A DNA stretch of 64,000 nucleotides from NCBI GenBank assembly GCA_050084515.1, contig CM114271.1:37634001-37698000 (forward strand). Direction: 5' to 3'. The notes beneath the pieces are model-generated. The model searched no databases, had not been told where the DNA came from, and was given only the letters and a program-made list of their open reading frames with translations. Shown one piece after another: positions 5,561-64,000 of this stretch; position 1 is the first letter of the stretch, and every line of letters begins with the position of its first letter. The DNA comes from Blasia pusilla (Eukaryota). The translations under genes were made by a program, and so were the position numbers.

Positions 5561-6217
5561 CTTTTTTAGTGCCCGTTTCCTTTTTTTTGCGTTGAGAGCG
5601 ATCGTTCGAACGTGTCTTTTCTTGCCGAACTTCGCCGCTTTCGTTCTGCTGCAACTCATAGTTGTGTCTCTCACTTTGACATGCTTCCGCTCTTGGAGTT
5701 CGAAAGTGATATTCTCTAAACCTTATCACCGGCGTTCATAGGTCTCTTGCGCCTTGTACCCACGCTTTTGCTCTTGTTTGCGGTTCCGTAGTTCGCGCCG
5801 CAAGATCTCTTGTTGCCTTGTAACCACGCCGCTAGCAATCTTTGTGTCATTTGCAAAGCCCTAGTCATGCCGAATGTCCTCACCCGGATGTCTCCTTGAT
5901 GATGAATTTGGTCGAGCTTGATTATGGCATCGATTGAGATCGATTGCTCTCATTGTTGTAGCTTTTTGTTTGCATCTACATCAGAGATCCTTTGTTGCTC
6001 ATAACTTGTGCATTGGGGCAAAGATAGGCTTCTTCTTGACTTCATTAGTTTAAGACATTTAGAGTCGTAGTTTCTGTGCTTGACGATGTGAGTGGGTTCA
6101 GATTGTGGCATTCTACACCTCTTACTCCTAGCACTATTCATAATACCCTCACACACGGCCTCTGTGTACTCTCGACTCAAGACTTTTGACTTTGCCCTAC
6201 TTTGGATTGGGTTTGGT

Positions 6218-38500: not shown

Positions 38501-39200
38501 ATGCTGCATCATTCCCCTCTCTTGCTTTGACGCGCATTCCTCTTCTACCAACATTGCACTAAATTGCTCAAAAGTAAGCGGCATGGGTCTTACTTGAGTA
38601 TTCAATGGTGTGACCAAACTGTCATACCTTGGAGGCAAAATCCTTATGTATTGACGTGCCAAATCTTCGCTAGACTTTGAAATTCTTGGTCCTTGTCAAA
38701 AATTGCTTCCCACCTTCTCCTTCTGAAAATTTCTTGGACGTAAGTTGATTCTCCACATTTTGAATCCGAGTCTCATTCCTCGTTTCATACTGATTTTTCA
38801 TAATGTTCCACGCTTGAGTAGCAATGGTCGTATGTTGAATGAGAGTCATGACATAATCAGTTACATTCGTGACAATCGCATATAGAGCATCAACATTTTT
38901 ACGTTTCCATGGGAGCAATAGAATAGAATCGATATCACCAGATGAAGATGAATAGGCAGAACTCAAAGTAGCTTGTGGATTTGAATCTACCCTTGTGGCC
39001 GTCTCCCAAATCTCAAATGATTCGAGGAAAGTTCTCATTTTGAACTTCCACAATGTATGGTTAGACCCATCTAACTTCCCTTGACTTAGCAGAGGAGGGC
39101 GAGCACAAATTGACAAAGAAGTAGTCATCTCTCAAGATTTTGTGCAAACATACTAGATCGCGAGACACAAAATACTGGAAAACCTATTGTTTTGATACCA

Positions 39201-43049: not shown

Positions 43050-46000
43050 TGTAGAAAACTGCTACGTATATACAAAAGCATAACTCATGGGATACTACTG
43101 ACATTCATACACCACCGTGGAGAAAAACTTTTGCAATAAGAGAATGAGTGGAGGCTGGGCCACTTTTCAATTATAGATGGTACGTACAAGCAACCCTAAT
43201 CCTAACCATAGGCTTAAGTTAAACTTATAGTGATTAACTATCCTTAGTTAAGGTAATTATGTTTAACTAACTAACAAAGATGAAACTTTCCTACATCGTG
43301 TGAGTATCAAATGTAGCAGTTCGGGTGTCCAATGAGCTTGATTATAGCTCAATCTTCAGTACTCCTCCTCAAGATCATATTGATATCTCAAACTATCATC
43401 TACATAGTTTATAGACATCTCAAACTTATCTCTAGATAATGCATTTGGAAAGATATCAACAATTTGCTGATGAATACCTATATACACAAGATCAATTTCT
43501 CTCTCATAAAATGATAGTGCACCTCAATCATGAAACACAGCCTTATTAGCCTCGATTCTACTAATATTGTATATATATATTACAGTAGGTCATAGATTAC
43601 TAACATCAATCTTAATAAGTAATCGATAAAGACACATTGCCTTACATGTTGCATTGGTTGCTTCTCTATACTCACCCTCTATTGAAGATAAAACAAATAT
43701 TGATGTGCCTAACTTATAAGTGCAGTTCCCCAAGGTAAGTGAATAACCATATGTGGAGTGTTTATCAACCACGCTTCCTACTTAATCAACATCTGTGAAT
43801 CCCTATAATTATAAACTCGGAGAAATTTCAAACGGAAGCCCAAATTAAATACAGAATATAACATACCACATAATCCTACTGACAACATCATGGTGAGTTT
43901 CTTGACGTGCTTGCATAAATTGGCTCACTAGTCCAATTGTATAGCTCAAGTCTCGCCTTGTTATAGACAAATAGATAAAACGACTGTAGAGTTTGGCTTA
44001 CAAGTCATTATACCCTATTTTGAAAGCATATGAAGAGCATATTATCATTGTAATAACCATAGGTCTCTCCAACCCTTATCAACTCAAGAGTAAGAAAGTA
44101 CTTGAGTTCTTCCTAGTCCTTCATATCAAATTTTGCATTTAACTTAAACTTGACTTATTGTACCATATCCTCAATACTGCCTTTAATCAAGAAGTCCTCA
44201 ACATAAAATACAATAATAATCGTATGATCTTGTCCTCTCAAGAAGTATAGCAAGGAGTTAGAATCACATAACCTAAAGACAAACTTTTGTAAGACTTATG
44301 CAATCTTACCATACCAAGATCTTGGAGATTGCTTGAGCTCGTATTCAGCTTTCTTTAACCTACATACAAGGAATGGAAACTCTGGATATTCATATCTGAG
44401 TAGTTGAGTCACGTCTATATCCTCATATATATCTCCATTCAATAAGACATTCTTGGCGTCCAAGTGATATAATCTCCATTTCTTACTCACTACAACTAGA
44501 ACCACTATTCTTGTAGTCACCATCCTTGCAACAAGGCGAAATATCTTGTTGCAAGGATTACGATTATGAGGAGACATTGTCTACCAATCTTCTCAATCAT
44601 AATCATAATCGTTGTACGATTATGAGGAGACATTGTCTACCAATCTCGCTTTGTACTATTTTGATTGCGTTTGATTTTGTGAACTTATTTGCAACCAATA
44701 GCTTCCTGACCAGAAGGTATATCAACCAGCTTGCAGGTCTGTTGATGTCTTAATGTAGCAAGCTCTTCTTTCATAGCTTTAATCCATTCGATCTTGCTTG
44801 CAACTTCTTCAAAATAACTTGGTTCCTCTTCTTGAAGGATAGTCATAACATACGCATGATATCTTATAAAGAATCCTTCATTTATAAATCTATGAATAGG
44901 ATGTATGTCTCTATTTGATCTAAAAATTTATTATTCAACGCATCTCACATCTTAATTGAGCTCTAACTAGTGTCAAAAAACTGAACACGTACTCTTCTCG
45001 ACCATGAATTGATAGATTTTAACTCAAGAATATAGGACCTCTCCTAATCTTGCACTAGTACTTGGGAAACTTATAAGCACTCTCTATTGGTTTATTTATC
45101 CCTTCATCATACTCTCCTCTCAAAAAATGAGTTTAGAGGTGGAATACATTGAAATGAAGCATACCATGACTTCAAAAATAACATCACGACTAATAATAAA
45201 TGGTCTAGAGGATGGAATGCAACACTTATATCCCTTAGTTCCATCAACGTAGCCAATAAAGATACATCTTTGAGATTTGGATTCTGAGTTTTTATATCTT
45301 TCAAAAGGAACATTAGCATAACAAATATAGCCAAATATTTTTAGGAAGGAAAAATGAGGTTTACTTCTTGTGAAGACTTCCAACGGAGTCTTATCGTGAA
45401 CCCTTAGTGTTGGAGTCCAATTGATTAAGAAGACTACGCATACTATAATCTCTAACCAATACACCTTTGGCATGTTCTCACTCAGCATAGCATGTGCCGC
45501 CTTAGCAATATGTCTATTCTTCCTCTCAACCACTCAATTTTGTTGTGGAGTATGAGGGTAAGTCATTTGTCGTTGGATGTCATTATGATGTAAGTAGTCA
45601 TCAAACTTGATTGAAAGGTACTCTCCTCCTCCATCACAACACAATTTGAGAAAGCGTTTCCAAGTATACGTCTCTACCATAATTATACATATTTGGAACA
45701 TTGAGAATACCTCTGACTTGGCTTTCAGAAAGTATATCCATCTATACCTAGAGAAGTCATAAAAAATGAAACAAAGTAATTGCAACCACTAAGGCTATGT
45801 TGTGATGTTGTACATACATCATTATGAATCAACTCCAATATCTTAGATGTATTTCTACATTTCTTCAGAAATAGAAATAGTTTGTTTTCCAAATTGGCAA
45901 ATAGGGTATATCTCTAACATAGTAAGACTCGATAATTTATGAAGTCCTATTACTGTATTAGATGATGAAAGACTTTGTAAATTTTTAAGATTCATATGCC

Positions 46001-47790
46001 CCATTCTCTTATGCCACACATTTAGATTTGCAATTTATTGGAAATTTTGACCATACATTGATGTTAAAATCTCTAGCATAGAAACATCTAATTTGAATAT
46101 TTTTCCATATCTTTTTCCTTTGACTATCATAGTTTGATCATCCATTGTTTCAATGAAATAATCGTATGTGTTAAAATTCATATGATAACCCTATTCTATT
46201 ATGTGTCCTTTAGAGGTCAAATTTCTTGCAATGGTAGGAACATAGAGAACATTTCCAAGAGCAGATAAAGACCATCACATGCTTTTGGAACTTTAACGGT
46301 ATGCGTGATATGATGTTGAGTATCATCTCCTGTAAGCACTACTGTAGGATCTTTCATCGGCTCCATACTAGTGAACCATTTAGTTAATGAGGTCATCTGA
46401 TTTGATGCATCAAAGTAGATGTGCCAATCTGTTGTCAAATCTTTCTTCACCATTACTCTCATATGATGAGTCATGACCAAGAGGTGCTCAATTTGTAAAT
46501 TTTGTTGTTCTTGATACTATCCTTAGTGTTGTTGTTCCATAGAGTTTTTTGTTATAAGCTAAGGCTCTCATTCTCATATCTTCAAAACTTTGCACATTTA
46601 CATTTTATCCCATACGAATTCCAAGATCTAGGGACCCTCTACTACTGACCTCGACCCTTACGGTTTCTACCATCATCACCTTGTAATTGTGTTTGTTATT
46701 AGTTCGTAGTTGATTGAGTGAATTTATGTTGAGTACCTCTTTGTCCATATGCTTGATATCCATCACGACCATGGAAGCTTCTACCATGATCTCTACCTCT
46801 ATTTGATCCATTACGTGCAAATAGCGAACTCTCTTGCATACTAGGCGAGCTATCGTTGCCAACAAATCTTGGAGATACAAAGTGGCCTAGTCCGTCCATG
46901 CGCTCATAGAAGAGCTTTGAAGGAACCTTAACATGGAGATAACTGGACATACGAGAATACGCTGCCGCTACGGCTCCCGACTATTTCACTACTCGAGAAA
47001 CTAGGATTTTTACCTACTTTTCTTCATTTATATTTATAGTAAATCTCTATTGCATCAGGGTGCCTTCTCATGTATTTCTCATACTCAAAATATAGACATT
47101 GATGGTTTGCGATCATTTCCTCATTTTGTTCAATTTTTTTTTCAATTGAAGGCTTTTGGCATTTTTAGATGTTTGGAACAACTTTTTTAATGCATCCCAA
47201 ACCTCTTTCAGAACATCAACATGTTAAATATGACCAATCCTTGACGAACTGATCGTTATTGAAATGTAATGGATTACTTACCTTACACGTTTGTTCCAAG
47301 CGCGAACATTCAAGTCTATTGTGTCACCTTCTGGTTTAGCATCATCATCTATAACAAACTCCCATAGTTTTTGTCCATGAGAAATTGTTTCATGCAAAAC
47401 TTCCAAACATTGTAATTTTGCTTATCTAGCTTCTCGTTGTTGAGCAATATTAATGCTCTATGAAGAACAATTTTACTCAAAAAATATAATTTCATGTTAT
47501 CCTCTGCTCCAATTGGAATGTAGACAACTCCTCCACAAAAATTAATTTGAAAATTTCCCAAATTGGAATTTGTATGGAAGAATTGGTTGAAATTGGATTG
47601 TACAGCGTGAATTGCTTAACTTTTGCCTCCAAAGTTCTGTCACAGTTACAACTCCATCCAAAATCTTCTGCCAATGATATTGAATTAAAATTTCTTTCTC
47701 CCAAATTGGAATGATGCCTTATTTTGCCTCTCTTTTCTCTTCAAACACCAAAAATTTCAATTTTTCCGCATCACGTTGCTTGTTGCCGCA
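43050..47790 (-). mobile_element. Second, more decayed Ty1/Copia element (5' LTR not seen)
   Basis: Gag NEKLDKQNYNVWKF, PR DWHIYFDAS, IN DGGGEY/PHTPQQN/ERKNRH, RT LYHLDAKN/LKQSPRSWY and an RNase H remnant. Candidate 3' LTR ~43050-43361 with PPT GAGGAGGAG. Confidence 0.9.
46862..47064 (-). mobile_element. Terminus-less fragment of the first Copia family's LTR, embedded in gag of the second Copia
   Basis: GAGATACAAAGTGGCCTAGTCC...CGGCTCCCGACTATTTCACTACTC...GCATCAGGGTGCC matches 39240-39495 with an internal deletion. Confidence 0.88.
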
Positions 47791-49346
47791 CATTACATAT
47801 CTCAATGAGAGGGAGTGTAGATTGAGTGCTACATGTGTTAGTTCTGGGTGATTAAGGGATCACTCATGAGGTTGAGAGTGATCGTTTGGGGACCAAGGAT
47901 CATAACGGTGTCCTTTTAGAACTTTGAGAGGTGAGATGGTGTGCTTGAGAGTAGCTCTAGAGGCTTTATGCAAAGTGGCAAGAGGTTTTGAGAGTCTCTA
48001 CATGAGGGACCATCTTGATCTCCATTTGTGTCACCCTTAGACGAGGGAGAGGGCATAGAGGAGGAGTTTATAAGTGCATTACCTATTGAGTAGTCCTACC
48101 ATTTGGGTGTATGAGATAGACAATTGAGGTAGAGGACTGTTTAGATTTATGGGAGTTGTGGGTACTATAGAGTTGCAAAACTTCATTGTGGAGTTTAGGA
48201 GTTGGTGTGACTCATAGAGGGCTAGAAACTTGAGGGAGTTCAAACCTTTCACAACATGGAATGGGATGTTCTAGCACCTAGAGGTGGCACCCATGGATGA
48301 TTACCATAAGTTTTCACATAGATATGCCTCCGCGATTGAGGCTTAGAGACTATAATATGACCGATATTATGTATCATGGACCAAGCTATTTCCAAATGAG
48401 GAGGAGGACCTAGGGGAGGCTACTCCCTCTACCATTAGTGAGAGCTAAGGAGAGGTGAGTCGGACTAGGGTAGCTACATCATCTTGTCGAATTTGTCCCA
48501 GGTTCAACCCCATGGTGAAGCTCTTTGCGGTGTTGCGAAGGAACTGCCAATTAAGGGGTACGGATTAAGAAGTTGCACAACATCCACGACTTCCATAGCC
48601 GCATGGGAGAGATCTTTCAAGAGGCATTCACTTGCTTGCGTCATTTGATTAGGATGACTCAAAGAGTGATAGTGGCCTACACCGTTTATGCATAAACGGT
48701 GTTTATAGGATGTTGGAACAAGACTTGCGGAAACGGGTGAGGGATGTAGTACTTTTGATACACACCTCACCTATGTTGAGAGATATTTTGATATAGTGGA
48801 GTGCATCGAGGGTAATAGGGCCGAGGAGAGTGTAGTAGCCATGAATCACATGCAAAAGTAGTCATGATTACCTGCACCACGAGTGCAACAACGTGGATTT
48901 TGAGAGAGGAGTGTGGCACTGCGAGCTCAAGGAGGTTATCGTGAGTTTGTGCCATAGAGACCTATGTTGTCATATGCGGTTCAGTAGCAATGGCTAGGAG
49001 TTCTTTTTTAGGTATGTGGTGGAGCCCATCGCGAATAAGATTGCATCTCTCAAGGTAGTAGATGCGTGTTCTAGCCTTGAGAAGGAGATACAGTAGTGTG
49101 ACCATTTTCAGACGTATGATCATAAATGTGCTAGGTGCTTTAGCTTACTCTTTGAGTTACATCCGGACCAAAGGCCAAAGAGGGCACCATAGCAAGTTTC
49201 CAATCTAGGTGGGCCTAGAGATCGTGCGCTAGATGGTCCCATAGGGGGAGGTGGAGTTGGATTTGCACGTGAGGGTGGTGGATATGCTCGTGGAGGAGGT
49301 AGAGGTCGACCAACTAGATGAGTCGAGGGAGACTTGGGACATGAGG

Positions 49347-50256
49347 CTAGGATGGCTTCTCACAAAGAGCTGTTGCAACAACAGATTGTTGTGATGGCAT
49401 CAAGGTTATCCAATGCCAAATGAGTGGCGCAACCATAGATATGGAGGATCTGGGCTCCATGTGCGGGGCTACACAAAACCCGCTAGGAGTGCCAAGGCTA
49501 CTGATCAACGCAAGTGAACTGTGCAAGGACGTTTCGTAAAACCGCACCTATGACGAGTTTTCATTGAGTAGGGCCGGATGTGATTTGGGACACGATGAAT
49601 CGGTGCGTGCCCCGATCGGCAAATGATCACCGGAGTATAGCACAGGATCTAAAACCTTGCATTAGAGTCAAAATTTCAACAAGGTAAACCCACTGAGCTC
49701 CCCGGCGTCGGGAGGTTTGGTCGTGAGATTGGATACCGTCCAGTGGGCAGAAGACGATTCAAAAAGCCAAGTGAAATCGGCCAAATCTATTTTTTTTAAC
49801 CTCCCGGCCCCTCCTTTCTCAACCATTTAGGCTCGACGGTCGGCCCAGAGGGCCCCTACCCTATCGGGCGCCACACTCTCCCAAAAGGAGGAGCCCTGGA
49901 GGGCTAGTTCTACAGTGTCTGGAACAATCTACATTTTGTCTTTGGTGCCGACTTGAATCTTGGGTGATTTAAAACACTAAAAAGCCACTCACCACGCGAA
50001 ATTCAGGTGAATAATCGAAAGCGAGTCTGCGCGTAAATATTTAATCGCGCGATTAGATTGCGACATAAGCAACTCGCAGAGTTCTGAGAATACTTTAGTG
50101 ATAGTATAGTGCATCATGGCGCAAAGCGCACCAACAGCCGGAGAGTCAAGTTTGGTTAACCGGGGCCTAAACTCTTCGTTGCTTGAGCCGCATGCGGGGA
50201 AACTTGCACGTGCGGTTCTTTGGGGGGGAAGCCTGAAAGAGCCTACCTATCTCAAT
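49347..50256 (+). ncRNA. Group II intron sequence (5' end apparently missing), inferred to be cox3i625
   Basis: Domain V GAGCCGCATGCGGGGAAACTTGCACGTGCGGTTC at 50185-50218. Ends CCTATCTCAAT. Confidence 0.85.
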
Positions 50257-50386
50257 TTCATGTCATTATAGGTACTATTTTCTTAATAATATGTGGGATT
50301 CGTCAATATCTGGGTCATTTTACCCCAAAGCATCACTTTGGCTTTGAAGCAACGGCTTTTTATTGGCATTTTGTTGATGTTGTATG
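50257..50386 (+). pseudogene. cox3: Cytochrome c oxidase subunit 3 exon fragment (NUMT)
   Basis: (F)[42 protein letters not shown], truncated. Confidence 0.97.
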
Positions 50387-51774
50387 CCTAGAGGCAGCTA
50401 CTCCAGGCGTATCCATAGCAGATGCAAAGTTGGATCCATAGAGAGGGAGAGCCAAGAAATACACCACGATTCCTCAATCTTTTATTTTGTACAAGGCGAT
50501 GAGGACCCCATCGATGCGGCCTGATTAGAGTTCTCGAAGGATGGATATTGGTGGTGTGCACACACGACGGGTAATGAGAGAAGCAAGTACCACAACTCCT
50601 ATACCGGATGCTTAGGTAGAGCGTATGTCAAGAAAGTTGTTAGGGGCGGCCATAACTATCTAATACGTCCCATGGTTTTTCGCTTCAAATATTACGACGT
50701 ACACCGGTTGAGTTTTTTCGGTTAGCCATTATGCTATTTGAGTGTGGAGATGATGTCACTACCTCACGTTTAGATGTACTTGCAAAGGAGGTGATGGACC
50801 TGTCCTTGGAGCCTATGCACAAGCTTTCCACCTCAGATTTATGGCATGTGGTGGTTGTTAGGATAGATGGAAGAGATGCGTGCAAGACCCGCAATAGAGC
50901 GTGTTATGGTTTCTCCAAATGTTGATTTGGTGGATGACAGAGGAGAGGTCTTCCATTTGGTGAGTCTTGGAGGCAAGGTGTTTTTTTGTAGTGCATCTTG
51001 TTGGATTCAAGATCTAGATCATAACCCATGATATTGGAAAAGGTGATATTTACGGGGTTAGGTCGGACGAGGGCCGATATGGGGCGTTGCCTATTTAGGA
51101 TACAAAAATCCTTGAGTGGAGCAAGTGCAATATAAATTATCACTTGATATGAGCTCACGGTGAGGATTTGACCATGACATCCGTTAGATGAGTTTGTGGT
51201 ACGAGCCAAGGCAATAGTGACCGATGCCGACTTTTCCTAATATTTCCAATGCCACCTTATTCATCCCAAACACACCTAAGATCTTGTCGTTATGACCTTA
51301 AACACCACGGCCTTTCCCACCTTTTTTAGTTTTCCTACTTTCTATATATATAAGAAGGCCGATCCTAGCTTGGTTTGGGTTGACCATGCAAAACGGCTGG
51401 TATGCCTAATGCCTCTGAGCGAGAATAGGCGATGAGATTTTGTAGAAGAGTGACATAATATCGTCATTATCACAACCATCTTGACCTCATGTCTTGGATT
51501 AGGCGATGGACGTGAACTTCTTGTAATGAATTAAAATCTTAGGAGTAGTTCAGCAATGTCAAATGAGGTTGCGACAAGTCACGGTTGTTATGTTGGTGAG
51601 CCTCATGCCTACCGAGACGGTTCAAGTAGTGGTTGGAGGCAATACTAGAGGAGATCATGAAAGACATCCATCCTTGGACTTTTTGGGATGTTTTGCAGGT
51701 ACCTTGGGAGATGGCAGCCACAACATTGAGCGTGGTATATGGTCCTCCCTATTGAGGAGATGAGGTAGAACCAT

Positions 51775-53420
51775 CACTCTCTTGGACTTGGCTTGGTATC
51801 CACACCATGAAGCCAACCTCCCAATCCATTTCGTGCACTTGGCTCGCCCCGAAGCTCCCCAAAGTAGAGTTCAGGTTCTAAGCATCCCTTGGAGACCCTC
51901 CCCTTAAATATACTTTTAGAGATCTCCACCCCCTTCCCATCTTAATTTGGGAAAGTCCTCTTGGGCCACTCCTTTGGGCCTGGAATCCCATTGCCAATAT
52001 GATAGTTTTGGGGTACTTTCTAAAAAAAATTACGTTTTTTCTCTACAACTTTGGTGGGTTGGAATTTTATTTTCCTAAGATTTCCAATGACACCTTATTC
52101 ATCCCAAACGTACCTTAGATCTCGTCGTTATGACCTTAAACGTTCTTGTGTCATATTTTAGAGACTTCTCCAATGCGCATCCATACTAGTGCGAGCCTAC
52201 TAGAGTTCTAATGTTCCGTATCGACGCACGCTTGGCTATGAAGGTTGCAAAATTCACCCCTTGTTAGAGGTTGATGCCCTCATCAACGCAAACCTTTTAA
52301 TTTCAAGTCTTGTTGGGAAGACCACCCTTTGATTTCAAATTGCGTTCTTGTAGCTAACTTGCAATTCCTGTTTTGGCTTAAGTCTTAGATTGTCACACGC
52401 ACCACTTAGAAACATTTAGCTTCTCTTCTGAGGTGAACATAGATCATCTTCCTCCTGATAATCTAAGTTACCCTAATAAGCTATCCATCTTAGTCTAATA
52501 TCTAAGACTTCACTCGCTCACAACACATAAAAATCCCACCTGTTTGCAAGGTCCACAAGATGTACTGTTTTTGGATCAATATTGAATTTGACTCAGGCGC
52601 GTCACTAAGTTTACTCATGATATCGCAAGTAAGATCATCCCAAGCCCCAAGAGAGTGTGATCTACCTTTCCAACGCGAAGGCAAGCCCAAGTGTTGATTC
52701 CTCAACAGTTGGTCGTGTTCTAAGTGCTTATCCAAATCCAATCACTCTCCTCAAATATGTTATATCTCTCCTCTTAACTTATATCCTAAGCACATGAGGA
52801 ACTACTCATTGCCATGCACCAAAAGAAACTAATTGCAATAATTTCCTAAATCTCTAAATTGATGCATCACTTTAGAACAGCTTTTGGCCCAAGCTTCCAA
52901 TGGTCACAAATAATGTTCCTAGCCTCTCCATGTACTAACGCTTCTGTGCTTCCATTTGTAGTCTTGTAACACATCTTGAGCATGTTCCAAATCCACCTAC
53001 GCAATCCAAGTCACCTCCTTCATATGGTAGCCCTTCCACTTGACCAAGTACTAGTACTTGTTGGCCCTCCATCTCGAATCTCAAATGCAAGATGGTCTCT
53101 ACTTCAAACTCTAATTCTTCCTTGATGATCACTACTTGGGATCCAAATATTTTCTTGGAATGCCCATTATCTTGGAAGAACTTATTCAAAAAATACACAT
53201 GGAAAGTCGGGTGGATCTTGAACTCTTCTTGTAGCTCCAATATGTAGACATCCTCAAACGAGTTGGCCTTGATCACATACGGTCTAGTATTCTTGGCATA
53301 CAAGTTAGTGGACAAATTATTAAAAAGAGTAAAATTCTTCACACTAAACTACACTTACTCCCCCACTTGAAAAGTCACTTGGCGTCAACTCTTGTTAGCC
53401 TGCTTAACGTAGATTAATTG
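51775..53420 (-). mobile_element. 3' end of a chromodomain Ty3/Gypsy element: integrase C-terminus, chromodomain, 3' UTR, PPT, partial LTR
   Basis: KIHPTFHV, EFEVETIL and YLVKWKGY...TW at 52935-53342. AAGGGGTGAA tract at ~52253-52262. 51775-52252 is colinear with the first part of the solo LTR at 20222. Confidence 0.75.
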
Positions 53421-54061
53421 AGCCTTCGTAAGACTCGCTCTTGCCCAATTATCGATCATGCTCTTGCATCTCTGCTAATTGTTGTTTCTTGTTGCGTTTA
53501 TGCTCATGTAGACCCCTCAGAAAGGACCAAGTCAAGCATCCCTTCTAGCTGCTTGACTTGGCCCTATCTTGTGCCAAATGGTTTTCTCTCAAGGCTTAGC
53601 CAATCCCATGTTGACAAAAGTACATTACATATTATCTCTTCCAAAATATCCTCATCAACTCACTTCATATCCTCCAAACCACCCCAACTACCCTAGCCAC
53701 CAACCAAGACTAATTTTTCTTTTCTTTCATTAATACATCAACCCCATTACTTTACTTTTATACTTCCATCTCTTATTTATTACCTCTTTTCCTTAATTTG
53801 GGCCCGCACAAATGAGCCATCCTAAAGAGATTCAAAGATGTAACTTTCATTTTCCTAAGCTAATTTACTTAATACTAATAAAACTCTCTCTAACACTAAA
53901 TGAGAGAGGACTTTAAATAGTGGGTGATTTTACTATACGACAACAGATCTCGACGAGAAAATTGGCGATGTGAAAAAATAGGATTTCAAAAGAAAAAAAG
54001 GATCTTCTAGAACAAGCAACGGAGTCATACCGGCAACGAGCTACCTAACAAATGGTGTACA

Positions 54062-55822
54062 GGTTCCTTATCTCCTATGTGAATGAAGGTACACAGATTA
54101 GTATCCCGTCGCGTGTAGAGTGTGGGCTTCTCCTCTAGATGGAGACAGATTCTCCATGTACGACATGGGGCATGATATGTGTGATTGGGAAGTCTTAAAT
54201 TATCCAATCTATTTGGACATCAACGACCGTGAAGAGATCAGGGATAAGAACCTATGAGTGGTCTATGATGCAATTGTTGCTAGCAAGGACAACATCCCCA
54301 ACCTATTGAAGGTTGCCTCCTTATAGAACATTTTCCTTCATAATTCTAGTTGTGGGATGAGAACCCATAAGATACTATTCCGGATTGGAATACTCCACTA
54401 ACTTACGACCATATCGCACTTTTTTTTTCTTTTGCATACGCATATTTGAGTGATAGGGGTGTTTCTGGGTTCTGTATGGAGGGAGTGAAGACAAGCTCTT
54501 CAACCTTCCGTGCATGAAGAGATCTTTGAAGTTGCAGACGGTGCAATCTTGGATGACCAAGAATGACTATCCACTGAGATCTCCAACAAATCAAATCCGC
54601 GTAAGTCCCAAAAAACTATATGCTTCTTTTTTATATGATTTTGTTTCAGAAATTTGGGTCAGACATGCAATCCGTCAGATTTTGAGGGATTGCGGGAAGT
54701 TGTTTTGTGAGCTTAATTATGTGCAACCTGTCGGACTCTAACAGGTTGCCTATAGACCAAGAAAATTGGATTTGCAACCCAACGGATTGTGGATCCACTA
54801 TTCTGAGTGTTGTAGAGCAATCCGCTGGATTCCGACGGGTAGCTTTGCACATATGTACACCTTGCAACCCGTCAGAATCTGATGGGTTGCAACTGGACTT
54901 CTCTTCAATCTACAGAGCAACCTGTTGGTTTTCGACGGCTTGCTTGCTTCTTCCTCCTTATAGCTGAAATCCTTTTGCCCATGTCTTGTGCACAGATTGA
55001 GAACTCATATGTCTATTGTTTTGTCAGACTAGAGCATAATTTCCTGGTGTTTGAGATCTCAGATCCAATTCATCCATCCTTCAATGGGTTCACATTGGAC
55101 AGCCTTTACAATTCGCTCCCAGGAATTTTCATGCAGGAAGGTACGCCTTTACTTGGAGGAAGGGAGAACTCTCCGGCGCTGATGTAGACGCTCAAGGAGC
55201 TATGCTCGAGACCGAGTGATTTCGTCTTGGATTTGGTCGGCTTATCAGGGGCGAGTGTAAGAGGCGCCTAGCAGAGTGGAAGGAACATACTCTGCCTTGA
55301 GGGAAGGAGGCAACTATTTGACCTTTGCAAGGAGGTAAAGGCAGACTACGAAAGGCTGGTGGGAGTATACAATTTGCCTCCAAGGCAAAGTGCATTAGCA
55401 GCAAAGCCATTGGTAGTGACAGTATCGTCACTACTTGTTATTCCTTAAATCAGGCGGGCAAAGTCGAGAATCATTTTGGAAGAGCTCTCGGATGATGACG
55501 AGTGAGTTCAATCAATTTCTCGAGGTCACAAGCGTTGGGGAGTTGGGATTTAGTGGTTTCAAACGGCGGAGCACATATTGATACGTACTAGATGGGTGTA
55601 AACTTGTAGAGCATAAAGATATTTTTCCAAGGCATCCATTGGGACTTTTCTCATGTGACATGGGATTGATATGGTGTACCTAGGAGGGCAAGGCTTTTGA
55701 ATTTCCTTTCTTTCTCAATCCCCATCTACAATCGGCCAAAGGAGCCACTTGTCTCTCCAAAGAAGTCTATTGTAAAGGAACCAAGGAGAGTTAGGAGTAT
55801 TTTTGTAGATGATGAGGCATAA
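54062..55822 (+). pseudogene. Decayed spliced gene resembling a beta-class N4-cytosine/N6-adenine DNA methyltransferase
   Basis: Exon ...IPDWN...FFSFAYAYLSDRG/CFWVLY...SWMTKNDYPL. GT-AG intron at 54601-54995 joins in frame to ...GTPLLGGRENSPALM*TLKELCSRPSDFVLDLVGLSGASVRGA*QSGRNILCLE...LFD, resembling motifs X-I-II (KP..L..LI...S..GD.VLDPF.GSG....A...GR..IG.E). Confidence 0.7.
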
Positions 55823-58800
55823 GAGATCATAGACTAGACTTTCTAGTTTAGGAAATCAAATGTAAATTTTTTAGTTGCGATCGAATTATAATGAAGGACT
55901 TCCATGTTTTCTAACATTCTTGAAGTGGTTTCCTTCTTTTTGGTTTTCTTTCTCTGGTCTCTCTTGGACTCTACTAGACAATTTTGGTGGCTTGTAACCC
56001 GTCGGATTCCGACGGGTTGCATGTCTAACTGGGGATGTGTTTTGTGATGTTTTGCTTTATGAATGGTTCAAACTTGTAAAATAGTTCTCTGGTTTCCTCT
56101 TATGGTTGTCGGATTCCGACGGGTTGCAAAATAAAAAAACAAAGACAATGCTTGTAACTTGTCAGATTGTGACATGTTGTGAGAGGTGATATTGTTTTCC
56201 TTATCTCTTTTTTTTTTGCTGCCCTTGGGAGTTGTGTCTCTAAAATTTTCCTCTCTTCCTCTCCTCTCTTGCAACCTCTCAGATTCTGACGAATTGCAGG
56301 TATGAATGGAACTTGTGTTTCCTAACATTTATTCATATGACCCCTAATGACAAATCATTCTTATACCTTTTTGCTTACATCTTGTCATGCAACCTGTCGG
56401 ATTTTGACAGGTTGTAGGTCCGGGTGATTTGAGTTGATCTCTCTTTTTTCTAATCTTTGATCTGCACGTGTGGGTTTCTTGTCTTATCTCCACATATATG
56501 ACAGGTTGTTATCCATTTTTTCCTTATCTTTGATGACTCATATCTTCTAACTCTTCCTCTACTAGATGATTGCCTCCTATTCATTTCAGTTGCTATTTCT
56601 CTCACCTTTGATCACAATGGAACCTATGGATTTCTTGTCATATCTTCACATGTAGGTAGGCTATTTCCTATGGATTTTCAATGGTCATGTCTGTGAATAA
56701 GTCTATTACAAAATCACCTCTCCTCTCTCTCAGTTCCTTTATCTCCAAGATTATCATGAGTGGTTGTTGAATTCTGACAAATTGTCGGAAATAAGGCTGG
56801 GAGTCTTGAATTAAAAGCCCAAAATCTTTCCATATATTGAGAAGACTAATCCTTGTCTCTTTGTCTAATCCATATATCTGGCTTACACACATAGTTTGGT
56901 AAGAAATCGGATTCCCTTCACTCCCTCATCTTGCTTACAGATAGAATTATTGAAGCATGTCCAAAGCAGGCTTCACATTTCCAACTTTACATGTTGGTCT
57001 GGAAAAATGAGGTTGGTTTTTTCCCCAAGGTGGTCCACTTACATCTCTCTTCAAAACTTTTTTTATTTTTGAAGTAGAGGAGAAACTTCAAAAATAAAAA
57101 ACAAGGGGAGATATTAAAGAAATCTATTCCCCGAAACTTGAAGTAGGAATGTGTATGCAAACTTTGGGTTAGGTTTGTTTCCATTAGATCTCATGAGGTC
57201 AATGACATTCACATTAATGTCTTTATCTTGAAGCACATTGTCACGAACTTGTGAGTTGGAGTAAAAGCTAGATTGGAAAAAGCAAGAATTATAAATGTGG
57301 AACTCAAAGCACTCGCAAGTTGAAGACCTCCGACATTGGACAAAACATGCTTCAAAGGCAAGCCATAGATTCTGTATTGTCCATTGAAATATGGTGGAAT
57401 TTTCCATACTTTGGACTCTCCAATCTCGCGTTGGACTGTTTCACCTATAACCTCATCCTTTCCATCCATCTTGATATCCTTGGAAATAAAGATAGTTTAA
57501 ATTCAGAGAAGAAATTGGAGTGAAAAGAATTTTGTAAGACTACTATATGAACATCCCTAGGTTGCACTCCAATAATATCTAGCGGCTTTTCCTCTAATTG
57601 AGGAAGAGTTGCTAGATAACTGCCACATGTGAGTTTCAAAAAAAATTCCATCTGGATATGACGGAAAAGCTGATTGTTGGAGAAAGAAATGAGAATGAGA
57701 ATGAGAATGTTGAATTTATAGTGAACAATATATGAGTTTATTCTAACAGGATTGGTTTAACATACACTTCGTAGTTAGGTTCAAGTAGCGCTAATTGATG
57801 GGACCAAGGGATAAAGAATATTCCATCAAAAAATCCGTGGGTATCCAACCCGTCGAACTTTGATGGGTTGCTTTGGGGTATGATTATAGCGAGTCGAGGG
57901 GACAGCCGAGGAACTTTAGGGAATCCTACATGCTGTAGTACAATCCATTGGATTCTGATGGATTGCCAAGGTTGGGATTTTTAGGTTCTTGGATGCAGTG
58001 AGGGGGCTATTTTTGAGCTAAGTTCGATGGGTTATAGTGGGGCCATGGAGAGTTGTAATAGGTACATTATCAACAAATATGGGGACAAAGGGTGGGGGAA
58101 GTCATGTAAGAAACTTGTCGGAATCCTAAAGGTTGCAATCTTATCCGTCATATGTCATGATAGATGAGACAAAGGGGATATAGTATCGAGGCCTTAGAGG
58201 GGTCTTGTACTTCCCTATTATGCGGTGACCTACGAGTGTAGGTCATCCTTTCCTTTATGAAGAGTAGAAACCTTGGAGAAGTTGATCCTCCCATCATTGT
58301 GTGGGCCCATAGGGTTGAGGGGTAGTTGGTAGTTGGTGTCATGAGAGAACCACAAATGTAGTTGTTAGGGAGTTAGTACTTTATGTACTCGAAGTCGTTA
58401 ATGACCTACTTGGAGGGAAGTTACCTATGTGTACATGTCACCCATATGCATGGAGATGCCTAGGAGGGGTATACCTTGGATAAAGCTCATTCGGAGCTCA
58501 TCTTCCTTAGGATCAGACCCATGTTGGGATCCATGATGGAGTGCAGCTTGCATGTATTGAGCCTGGATTCTCTCTTGAAGAGTGGTCTAGGATTGATCGA
58601 AGATCACACACATTGAGAGTTTCTTTTCATACTTTCTCTTATTGTTACATCATTGTGTATCATTGATATGGATGTTTGGATGAAGCATAGTTGATGGCTG
58701 ATTTCATCAAGTTTCACAATATATTCATATCAACTTTATATCTTAAAGGGGTTGTCCAATTGTTCATGTGTAGATATAGTAGGATTCATAATTAGATGGA

Positions 58801-59163
58801 TCTTAGACTTGTGTATGTTGGGAGCAATGTCTATTCGCACATCATGTACTCAAATGGGTTGCAGGGGATGGTGGTGGGTTAATCCGTCAAAGTCCGACAT
58901 GTTAAAATTGGCTGATAGTTAGGCGTCTCTAGTTTGGACGGTCCACAGTAGGATGGGTCAGAGGTGTCGTTGGGGCAACCTGTCGGATTCTGATGGGTTG
59001 CTTTGAGCTCTTGTTAGGATAGCTGGGGCATGGCTTAGGGCAAAGTGGCTTAGGGTAGTGTTGGGTCAACCCGTTGGATTCCGAAAGGTTGCAATTGGTT
59101 GGAGGTAGGGCGATTGGGATGCAGGTAAGTTTGAGGGCCACCCGTTGAAATTCCACGGGTTGC
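54667..59163. repeat. Dispersed 27-bp palindrome GCAACCCGTCGGAWTCCGACGGGTTGC, about 18 copies in three clusters
   Basis: Copies start at 54667, 54723, 54774 (partial), 54817, 54864, 54917; 55994, ~56101, 56154, 56271, 56389; 57845, 57940, 58110, 58879, 58975, 59066, 59137. Confidence 0.92.
56500..57651 (-). pseudogene. Decayed ORF of unknown family, convergent with the methyltransferase-like gene
   Basis: A chain of overlapping minus-strand ORF fragments between palindrome clusters 2 and 3. No motif recognised. Confidence 0.3.
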
Positions 59164-59601
59164 ATCTCGCCTACTCACAGAATGCACAATAACAATCAAC
59201 CATTACCACTAACGGCTAGTAGTCACCATTGTTTTCACTCCAACGGTCGGAAGCCAACGACTTTGAAAGTGTATAAAGACCAACTTTTGGCCCATTAATT
59301 TTTTCATTTCCCACAAATTTCAAAGAGCTCTCCTTTCTTAGAAGACCTTGATAGTTGGCAGTGAAGCGACTCGACAATTGCACAAAAGTGTTGGTGGTTG
59401 ATCCCCGTTCCTTCAGTCGATTGGGAAAACGGTCGGTATCTTTTTGGCGGGAAGCTGAAGACCAATTAGGTAGAAAAAAATTTAGGCGCAATGGTGAGGG
59501 TTAGATTGTATCTTGTCATTCATCTTTGCAGAAAGGCCAAGCAGTGCGCCTCTAGCTTTTAGCTCCTTCGATGGAATTTTTGTACATCCCTCACTTCGCT
59601 C

Positions 59602-60645
59602 ATGACTCGGAAGAAGTCCCAAGCCAGCAAGGGTGGGAGCTTCACTTCCAAGTCCTATGGCACTCCAAGGTCAACTTATCCTAGTCGATTCTCAACGGTG
59701 GATATACGGCAAGAAGAGATAGAGGAACCGGAAAGAGAACCGAAGATGCAAAGGCAAGAGCTCGAGGAAAAACTTGCCTTGGAAAAGATTGCAAGACGAT
59801 AGAAGAAATACGTCTTGGAGGCGGTCAAGAAAGAGAATAAGACACTTGTTGATGAGTTGAAAGAGAAGAAGCGGAAGGATGTTGCATTTCGGAAACCAAA
59901 ATTGGCCAGAGCACATAAGGAGAAGGCTGTGACTACAAAAGAAGAAAGTCGCCCACGTCCCAAAGACAATGTGGAAATGGAGGATGTCCCTTCCTGGAAA
60001 TCAAGCGGTAACATGCAAGAGAGCAACCCCAACAACATCCCAAACAACATTAAAGAGGAGAAGAAAACAATGAGTGTTGAGATGGTGGACGTCTCCTAAT
60101 CAAGTTCTAGAGGAGATACTACGTTGTCGTTGGACCCTCTAGTACAATTAGACCTATTCCACACGGATGAGTTTCGTGTAAAATTGCTAACTGCTACTCT
60201 AGAGCAACTCATCGGGTTAGATATAGATCCAATCTTCAAAAGGGTAAGCAACGATTGAGATTATTTTTTTAAGCATTTGATTAGCTACCATAATGGAAAA
60301 CACCTGCTAATTGATTGTTGAATTTCTTGAAGGAATGTAAGTTAGACCCTAAACTTGCAAATAGCAATAGGCCAGGAATAGCTAATCTTGAGGCTATTCT
60401 CTTGAAGGCCTTTGTGATGCAGGGGGTGACTTGAAGGATGGGAAATATCACCAAGATTGGTGCTCAATATTGAACCATACAATGTTGAGAAAGTGCAAGT
60501 AGCAATAGATAAAGAAGACTCCTTAGAAGAACGTGGCAGTAATAGAGATATAGAAAGCAAGAGTTGGAAGTTCCTCACTTTCTCATTGGTAGAAAGGAGG
60601 TCATTTGTGGGACTCTCTTTATCATGTCATTTAACAAAAAGATAG
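59602..60645 (+). pseudogene. Decayed ORF with a K/E-rich coiled-coil N-terminus, unknown family (likely TE accessory ORF)
   Basis: ORFs 59602-59802, 59815-60099 and 60457-60645 share one frame and are separated by stops. Confidence 0.4.
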
Positions 60646-61460: not shown

Positions 61461-64000
61461 TGTCGTGCACATACACATTGCTACACAACATACATGGCTA
61501 TCACCGAACACACACACAAACACGCACGATCCCATGCTAACTCATGGCATCCAAACAACGAGACAAGAAGTACCAAAATATCTCTAATAAAATAAGAACC
61601 AATCTCTCTCACAACACATAATTCTCATATGTGTGCACTCTCACATGTCTCTCTCAATGTCAAACCAAACCCACTCTCCTAATGAGAGGCTTGGGTTACA
61701 CTTACAAGGCAAGGGACCATAGCTCCCCCGCCTCGTGCCAAGAGGTTCAACAAAGAGAGAATGAGCTCTCAAGCTCTCTCTCCTTGAGATATACCCCTCC
61801 CCTCTCCCAAGCTCTCTCCATGGTAACATATGCTCCCAAGTCACCTCCTTGGCTCTTGACCTAATGTAGGAGGTCAAGGACCACTTACAAAAAATAAAAA
61901 GTCAATCATATACTCAAAATGGTACTTACCTAGGATAATAAGTTCCTCAATATGGCTCCAAATAAGCCGAAACGAAGGGGAAACCTGCTCTCACGTTTCC
62001 TGGGGCCTCAGTAGGTCATCCTCAACCTCCTGAGTCTATCTTCCACTACTCGCAAAGACGCTCTACTAGATCTCACCGATCTATCCTAAAAGACATGAGA
62101 GTTGTCATGCGTATACACATCGTTACACAACATGCATCGTTGTCACCGAACACACACACAAAAATGCACGATCCTATGCTAACTCATGGCATCCAAACAA
62201 TAAGACAAGAAGTACCAAAATATCTCCAATCACCCCCCTAGCTAGTGGTTAGGTCCCTGTAACTCCAGATAGTCATCTATCCCTACCTACCATGACAAAC
62301 ATCTCTCAAACGTTAAGAGCAAGAAGTTCGGGTGCTCATATGATCCCATCGTTAGTCGCCTTCTTGTCATCCATGTCACAGACACAAGTCGGAATGTAGA
62401 ACTACCTACTTTATGTACACCTGGGACACATCCATCGTCCCTGAGAAACCCTAGTGAGAGGTGGCGTCAAGCATGCCATATGCTCTCGAACATCCATCAC
62501 AGACTAACATAGTGGTTGCACCACGAGCAGAACCACACAACATACATCGTAAGCCTGCAGGAACTACCGCTAAGCTTGGATCAACTATATCGTCAATGTT
62601 CAAAAGGTGACACGGTGCACAGTTACGCATATGGTCATTCCAAACCATACCATCGCGTCCTGCCAATAAGAGAACACTTGATGGCAAAACCTCACGCACT
62701 CTGAAGATGGTGCATCCTGTAGTCACATCCACTGTCGTGGGTGCCATTTGCTGCAAGTAGACATAGTTTCCCTGATGAAACCTCCGGATAGTAGGTCGAT
62801 AACCACCCTTCCCGAATAGTCGCATACCTCAATGTATCCCGATGCAGCACAATCGCCAACTTTTCAAACTCCGTGGATATTACTCTCCAAAATAATTCAG
62901 CCCTCTGAGAACATGCTCACATTCATACATGAGGGTCATCAAGGTTTAACACCTCACCAACATCTCGACGAATGGCCCTAGGTAAATATGGCTCTCCGCC
63001 ATACAAAAGCAAGTTCGGTGAGAAAGACGCTAAGGATGCTTGCTTGTTGAATTTGTATCCCATCGCCATCCACGGCAACTAGAGGTCACAATCTCCTAAG
63101 TGACCTCTCTATAAGCCATACTTGCGTAGTCCTCTCTTCAGCGTCTGCACAACCCGCTCCGCTAGTCCATCCGCCTCAGGATGATCTCGTGAAGTAGTGC
63201 GGTGGTCGATCAGTGCCTGATCATACAAGGCCTTAAACTCCTTGCAAAACTCTGTACCTAGCTAGTGCGCTGTAATGACTCAACACTTGATCTAGGAAGG
63301 CATACGCTACTCCCTCACTCGCTTTGTCAGGCAATGCAACCAACTCTATCTACTCAGAGAAGTGCTCGACCATCACCAACACATAACGACTATGGCGCTC
63401 CGTCAAAGGCAAAGATCTTGCAAAATCCAAACTCCATCTATAACCTAAACCCATGATTGGAAGTGGATGCAAATGTGGAGTCGGAGCATTGAATGATGCT
63501 CGGACTCGATCACACACCATGCATCTGGCAACAAACTGTTGAACGTCAGTCTGCATGCCTCGCCACCAATACTGAATCTGGAGCAAGTTGTACGTCCACT
63601 TCACTCCAAAATGATCCAACTCCTCATGGGCATGACGTACCAAATGTGCTCTCTGAGAAGGATGAGGCACTACACGCACTCTACCATCCTCCCACACTCG
63701 CAACATATATGTCCCCTCCCATCGGAACCGTCTGGCTCGCAATAGATCCTATCCCGCTCTCTAGCACCCACTGTGCTCGGGACGCTGCCAGTACGCAGGT
63801 ACTCTAGACCACTCCATCGTCGTGAATGTCTCGGCCACCTGTCGTCTCCTCATCGGCCTCTGGATCTAAGGACTCTCCATCAGACCTCGCCATCGAAGTC
63901 TCAAAAATCTGGCTCTCCATAGCCAATAAACCCAAATAGGCTGACGCATGCCATCCTGGCACCAACTCCTCATCACTCTCAGCATGCCAACGAGCTCCAA
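61461..64000 (-). mobile_element. 3' part of a Ty3/Gypsy element with integrase and a C-terminal PHD finger; runs off the window
   Basis: HAHEELDHFG...YWWRGM...CMVC and WSLDF integrase motifs. PHD-like CMLCG...MLVCDGCSR. PPT TAGGGGGG at 62233-62240. LTR at 61461-62100 plus a partial LTR copy at 62103-62230. Confidence 0.93.

Follow-up and report, generated by a model that had tools for sequence, protein, structure and literature searches.

A broken copy of a dispersed gene in Blasia pusilla, with a last exon probably derived from a bacterial-type DNA amino-methyltransferase

Introduction

How does a stretch that resembles the cofactor-binding part of a bacterial DNA methyltransferase come to lie in a many-copy repeat of a land plant? 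Bacterial-type amino-methyltransferases are rare in eukaryotes. Two of them, the rotifer N4CMT and the Marchantia DN4MT1, created new epigenetic marks. The case considered here is found in a window of 64 kb from Blasia pusilla (the window being the whole stretch of DNA that was analysed; all coordinates are positions in it). A first-pass annotation, made from the letters alone, had read the locus as the decayed remnant of an intron-containing methyltransferase gene and as cargo of a mobile element.

The last exon and its resemblance to amino-methyltransferases

On direct translation, the frame at 54843-55448 reads ...RENSPALM-stop-TLKELCSRPSDFVLDLVGLSGASVRGA-stop-QSGRNILCLEG..., with in-frame TAG stops at 55185-55187 and 55269-55271; this is the peptide, with both stop positions, that the first-pass annotation had given. 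Translation and protein searches place the last exon of the methyltransferase-like gene at 54996-55448 on the plus strand, where the two TAGs make it a pseudogene. In the alignment, the first of them occupies a position that is Q in relatives. The two stops, together with a breakpoint at 54121, also agree with the earlier description of a decayed remnant: the window copy is a dead pseudogene and itself does nothing.

The methyltransferase-like core lies at 55176-55334 on the plus strand, where an HMM of our own, hhalign and tblastn all find homology to the motif X-I-II region of bona fide PF01555 members. The HMM was built from 83 beta-class methyltransferase sequences (287 positions), and its best match in the six frames of the 64-kb window falls on this stretch (11 bits, E 0.0025), with the next best match at 2.4 bits. 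HMM positions 194-246 of 287 are aligned, and the scores from this HMM span 11-14.5 bits. Chaining over read-through tiles gives a score of 16.3; across the 294 tiles, the 99th percentile is 9.2. When ORFs are instead cut at each stop, the motif is interrupted and the signal is lost. With hhalign, the window peptide matches the methyltransferases at 79% probability (E 1.5e-5, with about 25% identity to bacterial enzymes). A tblastn search of 50,697 phage genomes with the peptide returned 179 records (best E 9e-3), and among the 25 matches listed of these 179, all 20 annotated rows are DNA methylases. At the level of sequence, the resemblance of the C-terminal exon to beta-class methyltransferases exceeds chance, and the proposal that this exon holds the SAM-binding motifs X-I-II is borne out by HMM, hhalign, phmmer and tblastn.

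What is shared with bacterial and phage PF01555 enzymes such as DpnA/M1.HpyAVI (5hek), CcrM (6pbd) and M.RsrI (1eg2) is a collinear motif X-I-II region, in which a hydrophobic beta-1 that terminates in D is followed by a loop with glycine, a helix and an R-x-(I/L)-x-x-E strand. The window peptide retains the acidic end of beta-2 (CLE). The canonical motif I, DPFxGSG(S/T)T in the consensus of our HMM, is absent. The window reads DLVGLSGAS instead, without the Pro-Phe and the first Gly of the bacterial enzymes, and the earlier caveat that motif I is degenerate holds. Where the bacterial enzymes have an HPxxKP-type stretch, the window reads GGRENSP. Unlike them, it also has no (D/S)PP(Y/F), and the gene is intron-containing, multi-copy and eukaryotic.

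The first-pass annotation had pointed to the Pfam family N6_N4_Mtase and to structure prediction as ways to check the identification. Pfam gives 0 families at E ≤ 10 for the window pieces, whether searched as four separate pieces or as six-frame translations of 49000-60500, and the PF01555 gathering score is not reached by them; the assignment therefore rests on one stretch of ~53 residues and a transitive link. Structure prediction provides no fold evidence: the AlphaFold2 models have low confidence (pLDDT 54.0 for the window exon and 40.3 for P0063), and a Foldseek search of the window-exon model against the PDB finds nothing at E ≤ 0.001. The rows that Foldseek does return for this model of pLDDT 54, weak histidine-kinase and designed proteins, are meaningless at that confidence.

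Part of the last exon also resembles LVIVD-repeat propellers. A phmmer search of 54996-55448 against 1.84 billion representative proteins gave 13 matches at E ≤ 0.001, 12 of which are LVIVD-repeat propeller proteins aligned to exon residues 2-62. These matches are discounted because their E-values add up 4-6 repeats per protein and because Pfam LVIVD gives no match, and a beta-propeller reading of residues 2-62 was rejected.

A related multi-copy family in another eukaryote

The same phmmer search matched P0005, a PF01555-like relative, at E 9e-5 over residues 42-109, and in BLASTP the window peptide and P0005 share 24/64 identities (E 2e-13). P0005 belongs to a family of 38 ENA ORF clusters, one contig each, on contigs of 36 kb to 1.18 Mb. 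PF01555 is matched at E ≤ 0.01 by 19 of 22 aligned members (the window piece counted among the 22), and the best PF01555 score in the family, 27.4 bits against a cut-off of 26.7, covers profile positions 170-217 of 221 only. Searched against the PDB, the family profile finds the DpnA adenine methylase (E 1.5e-4), and with hhalign it matches four phage PF01555 enzymes at 96.3% probability (E 1.8e-9, 92 columns). In the ESM Atlas, P0015 has PF01555 clusters as its neighbours, with a score of 0.94.

Motif I of the P0005 family is DLSASTGAS. Both this family and the window have DL...[ST]GAS instead of the bacterial DPFxGSG[ST]T, and G[GS]RE[NI]S instead of the bacterial HPxxKP; being common to both, the degenerate motif I predates the amplification of the window family. 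Dozens of dispersed copies in the P0005 family hold the same ~147-residue ORF open to the same end point, which suggests coding constraint while multi-copy. Searches for homologous proteins with the window piece (near lengths) and with P0005 (longer lengths) found no full-length or fused relative, and searches for related loci found no relative in metagenome contigs (family profile and window peptide) or in viral contigs.

Copy number, extent and transcription of the repeat

DNA read depth peaks at ~270 over 55170-55386, the methyltransferase-like core, compared with 1.3-1.9 in the least-covered bins, and points to a repeat unit present in the order of 100 copies in the genome. Among the 7,510 reads mapped on a 6.5-kb stretch, 4,652 are less than 90% alike. 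By read depth, the unit is thus dispersed and highly repeated, as a transposon accessory gene would be. At 54085-54301 the depth is ~87, and 305 reads extend leftward past 54121 into sequence that does not resemble the window, marking 54121 as the left edge of the repeated unit (plus strand) and a breakpoint in the window copy. The 3' part of the unit, 55449-56037 on the plus strand (DNA depth 98-153), holds the end of the frame, presumably followed by an untranslated part. Over 55387-55820, reads whose first mate maps to the minus strand give an RNA depth of 4.5-8.9 and those with it on the plus strand 0-0.9, and the RNA reads over 55449-56037 are sense-strand transcription from related copies. 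No RNA sequencing run is listed as containing the exact locus.

The intron and the pieces upstream of it

A putative phase-0 spliceosomal intron occupies 54601-54995 on the plus strand, with GTAAGT at 54601-54606, a pyrimidine-rich tract before the acceptor at 54940-54959, and CACAG at 54991-54995. Its excision joins ...NQIR to IENSY... at a codon boundary. In the P0005 family, conservation starts just after a Q (CAG) codon that aligns with 54995/54996, and the sequence upstream diverges between copies; the acceptor at 54995/54996 is supported by this start of the relatives' conserved sequence. No RNA or DNA read links 54600 to 54996 among the three RNA runs and the DNA reads mapped, and RNA depth is 0-0.2 over 54085-54952. 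The sole RNA joint runs from 55581 to 55651, has TA..TC ends and seems to reflect an inter-copy indel. The intron of the first-pass annotation thus stands as to its boundary sequences, its phase and an acceptor shared with relatives, but without a junction in RNA reads.

The upstream sequence is less orderly than had been claimed. The putative upstream exon at 54371-54600 on the plus strand, which ends at the GTAAGT donor, had been taken as a single frame, but on translation it consists of two (54371-54459, then 54460-54600). The peptide IPDWN...AYAYLSDRG is read in one frame, 54371-54517, which terminates in a stop, and the part adjoining the donor, 54457-54600, is read in a different one, so that reading through requires a frameshift near 54459. 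Of 23 DNA reads, 3 have an additional T just after 54459, which would bring both frames into register. Further upstream, 54121-54323 is an open stretch of the plus strand in the frame of the last exon with one TGA at 54255, defined by translation and read depth. It may be coding and is assignable to no methyltransferase motif (hhalign against methyltransferases, E 0.96).

None of these pieces contains a recognisable catalytic half. PP(Y/F) is missing from every frame of 54100-54600, and no catalytic motif IV, (D/S)PP(Y/F), was found upstream of motif I. The same interval gives no positive score with the methyltransferase HMM and no hhalign signal (upstream pieces E 0.41-0.96); the best local hhalign pairing in 54371-54600 sets FFSFAYAYLSDRG against an RvLKpgG-type position at E 0.41. 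Added to the last exon, the upstream pieces contribute nothing to the methyltransferase profile score (13.6 bits, compared with a null of 13.7 +/- 0.45, p = 0.63). The earlier placement of motif IV at LLIEHFPS, a peptide followed by three stops within the next 15 codons, was a guess, and the visible permuted order IV...X-I-II that had been built on it is unsupported.

Palindromes and neighbourhood

In a repeat search, a 26-nt palindrome (listed without strand; its consensus, flanks included, is TGCAACCCGTCGGATTCTGACGGGTTGCA) recurs 17 times between 54668 and 59163. The sites form four clusters, 54668-54943, 55995-56415, 57846-58136 and 58880-59163, and occur nowhere else in the 64 kb; sites were counted at 8 or fewer mismatches, at which five shuffles gave 0, 0, 0, 1 and 0. 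Five of them, at 54668, 54724, 54818, 54865 and 54918, fill most of the putative intron. Palindrome cells are paired in 84% of cases, and 18 cells are changed on both sides, compared with 9.4 +/- 2.9 in shuffles. This covariation is only suggestive, many of the double changes being CpG-type transitions and some copies probably duplicates of each other. The link between palindromes and gene is only one of proximity. Inverted-repeat arrays are thus present beside the gene, as in the setting of PAG2-type accessory genes discussed below.

No transposase, SET, ParB-like or 2OG domain is linked to the locus, as judged by Pfam in the six frames of 49000-60500 and in ORFs of at least 85 amino acids elsewhere; for SET (PF00856) there is no match at E ≤ 1 in the six frames of 49000-60500. 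The sole transposase found in the window is an unrelated hAT at 6092-8449. Looking for a DDE transposase within 15 kb is a weak test here, because the window copy breaks off at 54121. A repeat search of 50000-60000 gave no convincing pair of terminal inverted repeats beyond the palindromes, and no target site duplication was found in the single copy examined. The cargo claim of the first-pass annotation fits a repeated, element-like family, but the window holds neither a transposase or SET partner nor the N-terminal ParB-like domain that had been suggested as a companion, and the designation as mobile-element cargo accordingly rests on copy number and analogy. Separately, a group II intron and a cox3 exon lie 3.7 kb upstream of the locus, a hint of a non-seed land plant, since cox3 genes with introns are typical of those lineages.

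Discussion

The reading we prefer is that the locus is a broken copy of a gene dispersed about a hundred-fold, whose last exon probably goes back to a bacterial DNA amino-methyltransferase of the beta class (PF01555, N6_N4), namely to its C-terminal half, which binds AdoMet. The gene would be, or have been, an accessory gene of a DNA transposon, which is favoured over a retroelement because the gene carries an intron. In intact copies the protein may act on the DNA or chromatin of the element itself. To judge from its motifs it would more likely be a non-catalytic DNA- or AdoMet-binding derivative than an active N6A/N4C methylase, given a motif I that has neither Pro-Phe nor its first glycine, and the failure to find a (D/S)PP(Y/F). 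The 26-nt palindromes are candidates for cognate sites, or for subterminal repeats of the same element.

A methyltransferase likeness arising by chance in the non-coding debris of some other repeat would fit the silence of Pfam on the window pieces, the poor structure models and a short match at about 25% identity. It is very improbable and already largely refuted: independent searches all lead to one family and one stretch of 53 residues, the annotated phage matches among the 25 listed are methylases without exception, the runner-up HMM match in 64 kb is far below the 11 bits of the core, and the homologous P0005 family passes PF01555. A retrotransposon origin, with the exon as the adenine-methyltransferase (DAM) domain of a DIRS-type or LTR element, is suggested by a Ty3/gypsy fragment with a chromodomain (52935-53360, found by domain search) only 0.8 kb from the locus. 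Such DAM domains are likewise prokaryote-derived DNA amino-methyltransferase modules on eukaryotic mobile elements; as the accessible part of a 2026 preprint describes them (bioRxiv 10.64898/2026.05.21.726589), the retrotransposons that carry them are widespread across eukaryotes, and the activity of the domains is unproven in heterologous assays. However, the gypsy fragment lies on the minus strand, opposite to the gene, and an unrelated repeat, recognised by read mapping, occupies 53565-54120 in between; a six-frame search of 49000-60500 found no reverse transcriptase or tyrosine recombinase on the plus strand. The gene is intron-containing and matches PF01555, whereas DAM domains are Asn-Pro-Pro Dam-type methyltransferases in intronless retroelement ORFs, and the same part of the preprint gives DAM-LTR elements as absent from Streptophyta. 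We regard this origin as extremely improbable.

A fragment of a host gene (e.g. of DN4MT1 type, with its intron) could also have been captured and amplified by a non-autonomous Pack-type transposon or a Helitron, in which case the repeat never encoded a working protein of its own. The partial methyltransferase, the retained intron, the missing transposase and the high copy number with most reads below 90% likeness would all be expected, and the liverwort Marchantia has PF01555 host genes, going by the accessible part of bioRxiv 10.1101/2021.02.12.428880. Against capture stand the ~147-residue ORF that dozens of P0005-family copies keep open to the same end, a degenerate motif I older than the window amplification, and a read depth that peaks at the methyltransferase-like core, the pattern that a gene belonging to the element would show at its best-conserved part. 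On balance capture seems rather unlikely, and the accessory gene of a DNA transposon remains the preferred reading. A more far-reaching version of it, to which we give a low probability, would be a land-plant DNA-transposon family with its own beta-class amino-methyltransferase derivative, homologous to PAG2-type cargo and to the P0005 family, in which the protein recognises the hairpin-forming 26-nt palindromes and the element thereby marks or shields its own DNA.

The closest precedent appears to be PAG2 of red-algal Plavaka elements, a likeness drawn from descriptions, not from sequence. According to the available portion of the Bostrychia moritziana preprint (10.1101/2025.02.11.637652), PAG2 (PF01555 plus SET) is an accessory gene of Plavaka, in the EnSpm/CACTA superfamily, and is also found on Mutator- and Zisupton-type elements. 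As in the window family, a PF01555-type module is carried on a highly amplified, mostly degenerate and weakly transcribed element, and inverted-repeat arrays adjoin Plavaka accessory genes, in Bostrychia as tandem arrays beside PAG3, not PAG2. PAG2 as described there has the full PF01555 domain and a SET domain, at most 15 kb from a DDE transposase; in the window only the C-terminal half is detectable, without SET or transposase. Plavaka itself has been lost in land plants apart from moss hits, as stated in the accessible text of the Spirogyra genome paper (PMC13519894).

The host enzymes MpDN4MT1a/b of Marchantia (4mC, sperm) and N4CMT of bdelloid rotifers also have a bacterial PF01555 origin and introns (10.1101/2021.02.12.428880, PMC8885841; both as far as their accessible text goes). 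These sources describe one or two host genes with intact TSPPY-type motifs and demonstrated activity. Set against these descriptions, the window family differs in its order of 100 copies, its degenerate cofactor motif and its lack of a TSPPY-type motif.

The value of the locus lies in the family and not in the dead window copy. To go by the accessible parts of the reports, descriptions of such element-borne modules are recent and concern DAM domains of DIRS/LTR elements on the one hand and PF01555 modules of red-algal Plavaka on the other. No land-plant family of this kind came up in word searches limited to open-access text, which is no proof of its absence. The known range of element-borne amino-methyltransferases would be widened by a repeat family of land plants whose exon derives from PF01555, and such a family would offer a route to host 4mC/6mA enzymes or to inactive DNA-binding derivatives. 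On the more far-reaching version given above, the DN4MT1-type 4mC enzymes of bryophytes could have their source in element-borne genes, or these genes could derive from them.

The C-terminal exon and its relatives

The locus at 54062-55822 is a pseudogene, one copy of a repeated gene that contains an intron and whose C-terminal exon (54996-55448) derives from the PF01555 (N6_N4_Mtase) family of beta-class amino-methyltransferases. The first-pass annotation had quoted a C-terminal peptide, and this is indeed present in the frame 54843-55448 when it is read through the TAG codons at 55185-55187 and 55269-55271. The Pfam search of the window pieces that it proposed returned no family at E ≤ 10. 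Comparison with related sequences nevertheless gives good support for a methyltransferase origin of this exon. An exhaustive phmmer search against 1.84 billion representatives gave 13 matches at E ≤ 0.001, and P0005, a 147 aa ORF from another eukaryotic assembly, was matched over exon residues 42-109 (E 9e-5; in a pairwise comparison, 64 residues at 38% identity). The family of P0005 comprises 38 ENA ORF clusters, and because each of these sits on a different contig (36 kb to 1.18 Mb), the family is dispersed and multi-copy in that eukaryotic assembly. PF01555 is matched by 19 of the 22 aligned family members, without exception at profile positions 170-217 of 221, with the best match barely exceeding the gathering score. 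The family profile also finds the DpnA adenine methylase in the PDB (E 1.5e-4), and aligns with four phage enzymes, their PF01555 membership verified beforehand, at an hhalign probability of 96.3% (E 1.8e-9). For P0015, the neighbours in the ESM Atlas are PF01555 clusters.

The window peptide itself aligns with the phage enzymes over 53 columns (hhalign, E 1.5e-5). Our own HMM was built from 83 beta-class enzymes (79 of 80 loci, L082 being omitted as too short, plus the 4 phage CDS); across six frames of the 64-kb window its top match is 55176-55334, with 11 bits and E 0.0025, followed by a second-best match of 2.4 bits. A tblastn search of 50,697 phage genomes with a 76-residue window peptide found 179 records, and among the best 25 of these, all 20 annotated rows are DNA methylases, as are all 12 annotated rows among the 15 matches listed for P0005.

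A different resemblance concerns the start of the exon (..NFLVFEISDPIHP..; 55005-55100, + strand), which is similar to LVIVD beta-propeller repeats. Twelve of the 13 phmmer matches are such repeat proteins, aligned to exon residues 2-62 with E-values from 3e-8 to 8e-4. The Pfam LVIVD model does not match 55005-55100, and the scores seem to be raised by summing over repeats, so that this likeness is probably repeat-inflated chance.

Motifs and the catalytic half

The region aligned with methyltransferases covers the helix preceding strand beta-1, motif I, the next helix and strand beta-2, with the acidic residue at the end of beta-2 retained. Motif I is degenerate, as had been reported, and reads DLVGLSGAS in the window versus DLSASTGAS in P0005-family relatives. 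Both families have L for P after the Asp and the GAS ending, and both have G[GS]RE[NI]S at the position of bacterial HPxxKP; because they share these departures from the bacterial consensus, we infer common descent within a eukaryotic clade.

The methyltransferase remnant is thus well supported for its C-terminal exon, and the catalytic half was not detected. Our HMM gave no positive score over 54100-54600. Appending a continuous translation of the upstream pieces (X at each break) to the exon brought no gain in score (13.6 bits versus 13.7 ± 0.45 for 1,500 length-matched random pieces, p = 0.63), and hhalign of three upstream pieces against methyltransferases gave E 0.46, 0.41 and 0.96. By eye the pieces can be aligned collinearly with the enzyme, with W-D-like, RvLKpgG-like and W-x-K-x-N-like spots, and the position of their best local hhalign pairing is the one expected; neither is significant. 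The proposal that LLIEHFPS, which is followed by three stops, is motif IV found no support. Since three equally poor candidates for that motif can be named, the permuted order (motif IV first) would follow from family membership and is not visible in the sequence. Catalytic competence of the encoded protein is doubtful.

The upstream sequence and the intron

The upstream exon sequence is present as described, but not as a single open frame: IPDWN...SDRG occupies one frame terminated by a stop, and another frame holds the 48 codons adjoining the donor. The two would come into register with one additional T behind 54459, as 3 of 23 DNA reads have. The intron borders are as claimed, with GTAAGT at 54601-54606 and CACAG at 54991-54995, a pyrimidine tract lies upstream of the acceptor at 54940-54959, and by frame arithmetic excision of 54601-54995 joins two codon boundaries. 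Both sites are good, and the acceptor has comparative support: in the P0005 family conservation begins right after a Q (CAG) codon aligned with the window's Q|IENSY, and the read-through ORFs of its copies diverge upstream of that codon. No spliced reads joining 54600 to 54996 occur in three RNA runs, in which RNA depth over 54085-54952 is 0-0.2. Overall, the first-pass observation is partly confirmed and its interpretation partly supported.

Copy number, transcription and truncation

One DNA run and three RNA runs with the same species label were placed (at 85% or more identity). For DNA, depth is ~87 at 54085-54301, 9-31 between 54302 and 55169, ~270 at 55170-55386 and 98-153 as far as 56037, with 1.3-1.9 in the least-covered bins. 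The methyltransferase-like core is the best-conserved portion of the repeat unit. Of the 7,510 placed reads, 60 reach 99% identity and 4,652 stay below 90%. We conclude that the family is old and diverse and has of the order of 100 copies, a rough estimate because the baseline bins may be repeats too. Over 54953-56037 the first mate of RNA reads lies almost exclusively on the minus strand, which, given usual stranded libraries, means sense-strand RNA from related copies; the repeat immediately to the left has the opposite bias. The window copy is probably silent, because RNA reads 99% alike to it across 6.5 kb number none in run X14 and one each in X15 and X16. It is broken or interrupted at 54121, because 305 DNA reads there extend leftward into sequence that differs from the window's; 30 letters of it, read in the frame of 54120 onward, contain no stop.

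Genomic surroundings

A 26-nt palindrome occurs in 17 copies in four clusters at 54668-59163 and nowhere in the other 59 kb of the window. Pairing is retained in 84% of cells and double changes exceed those in shuffles, of which CpG decay and site-to-site copying can explain much. These may be hairpin elements, subterminal repeats or protein-binding sites. As five of them occupy most of the intron, they were possibly inserted into an older, shorter one. In reads from other parts of the genome the same palindromes are joined in different arrangements. At 57688-57725, ~40 nt in a GAGAAT-type simple repeat attract hundreds of partial-fit reads (474 + 637 loose ends).

Transposase, SET, ParB-like and 2OG domains were not found near the locus. 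A short, unrelated high-copy repeat lies at 53565-54120 (DNA depth ~200, read breakpoints at both ends) and has the strongest transcription of the stretch, RNA reaching a depth of 65 on the opposite strand from the methyltransferase-like gene. Ty3/gypsy pieces on the minus strand comprise a tail with integrase SH3 and chromodomain (52935-53360) and an integrase zinc-binding domain (62451-63748). Two Ty1/copia elements (36406-39131 and 44299-47615, both -) have gag, pre-integrase, rve, SH3 and RVT_2 pieces, each split over several frames. A hAT-type transposase at 6092-8449 (+), with zf-C17orf113, DUF4371 and the hAT dimerisation domain in two long ORFs, seems less decayed than the other elements. 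At 50183-50390 (+) the 3' end of a group II intron (Rfam Intron_gpII, 67.9 bits) directly abuts a fragment of the cox3 C-terminal exon (E 9.9e-13 to positions 202-247 of the Pfam COX3 profile), an organelle-derived, NUMT-like insert in DNA of 45-47% GC. An intron at this cox3 position may point to a non-seed land plant. A Lys/Glu-rich, coiled-coil-like open stretch at 59600-60400 (+) matches no Pfam family, and the opposite strand has a 139-aa low-complexity ORF.

Comparison with known systems

The rotifer PF01555 enzyme is stated, in the cited part of its report, to be without eukaryotic homologues (PMC8885841), and Marchantia is described as having two host genes with TSPPY (10.1101/2021.02.12.428880). 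DAM in retroelements belongs to another methyltransferase family, and DAM-LTRs are given as absent from Streptophyta in the portion cited (10.64898/2026.05.21.726589). In the red alga Bostrychia, the cited sections describe giant Plavaka transposons with an accessory gene, PAG2, combining PF01555 and SET, inverted repeats in tandem arrays beside a further accessory gene, PAG3, and homologues also on Mutator and Zisupton elements (10.1101/2025.02.11.637652). According to the part of the Spirogyra paper cited, Plavaka occurs throughout Archaeplastida including moss, yet its loss is inferred for land plants (PMC13519894). Unlike PAG2-type cargo, the window copy is without SET, a linked transposase and the catalytic half. 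The window family nevertheless probably resembles such cargo in how it works, and is probably its kin; cargo of a mobile element is the best, although unproven, reading of the gene.
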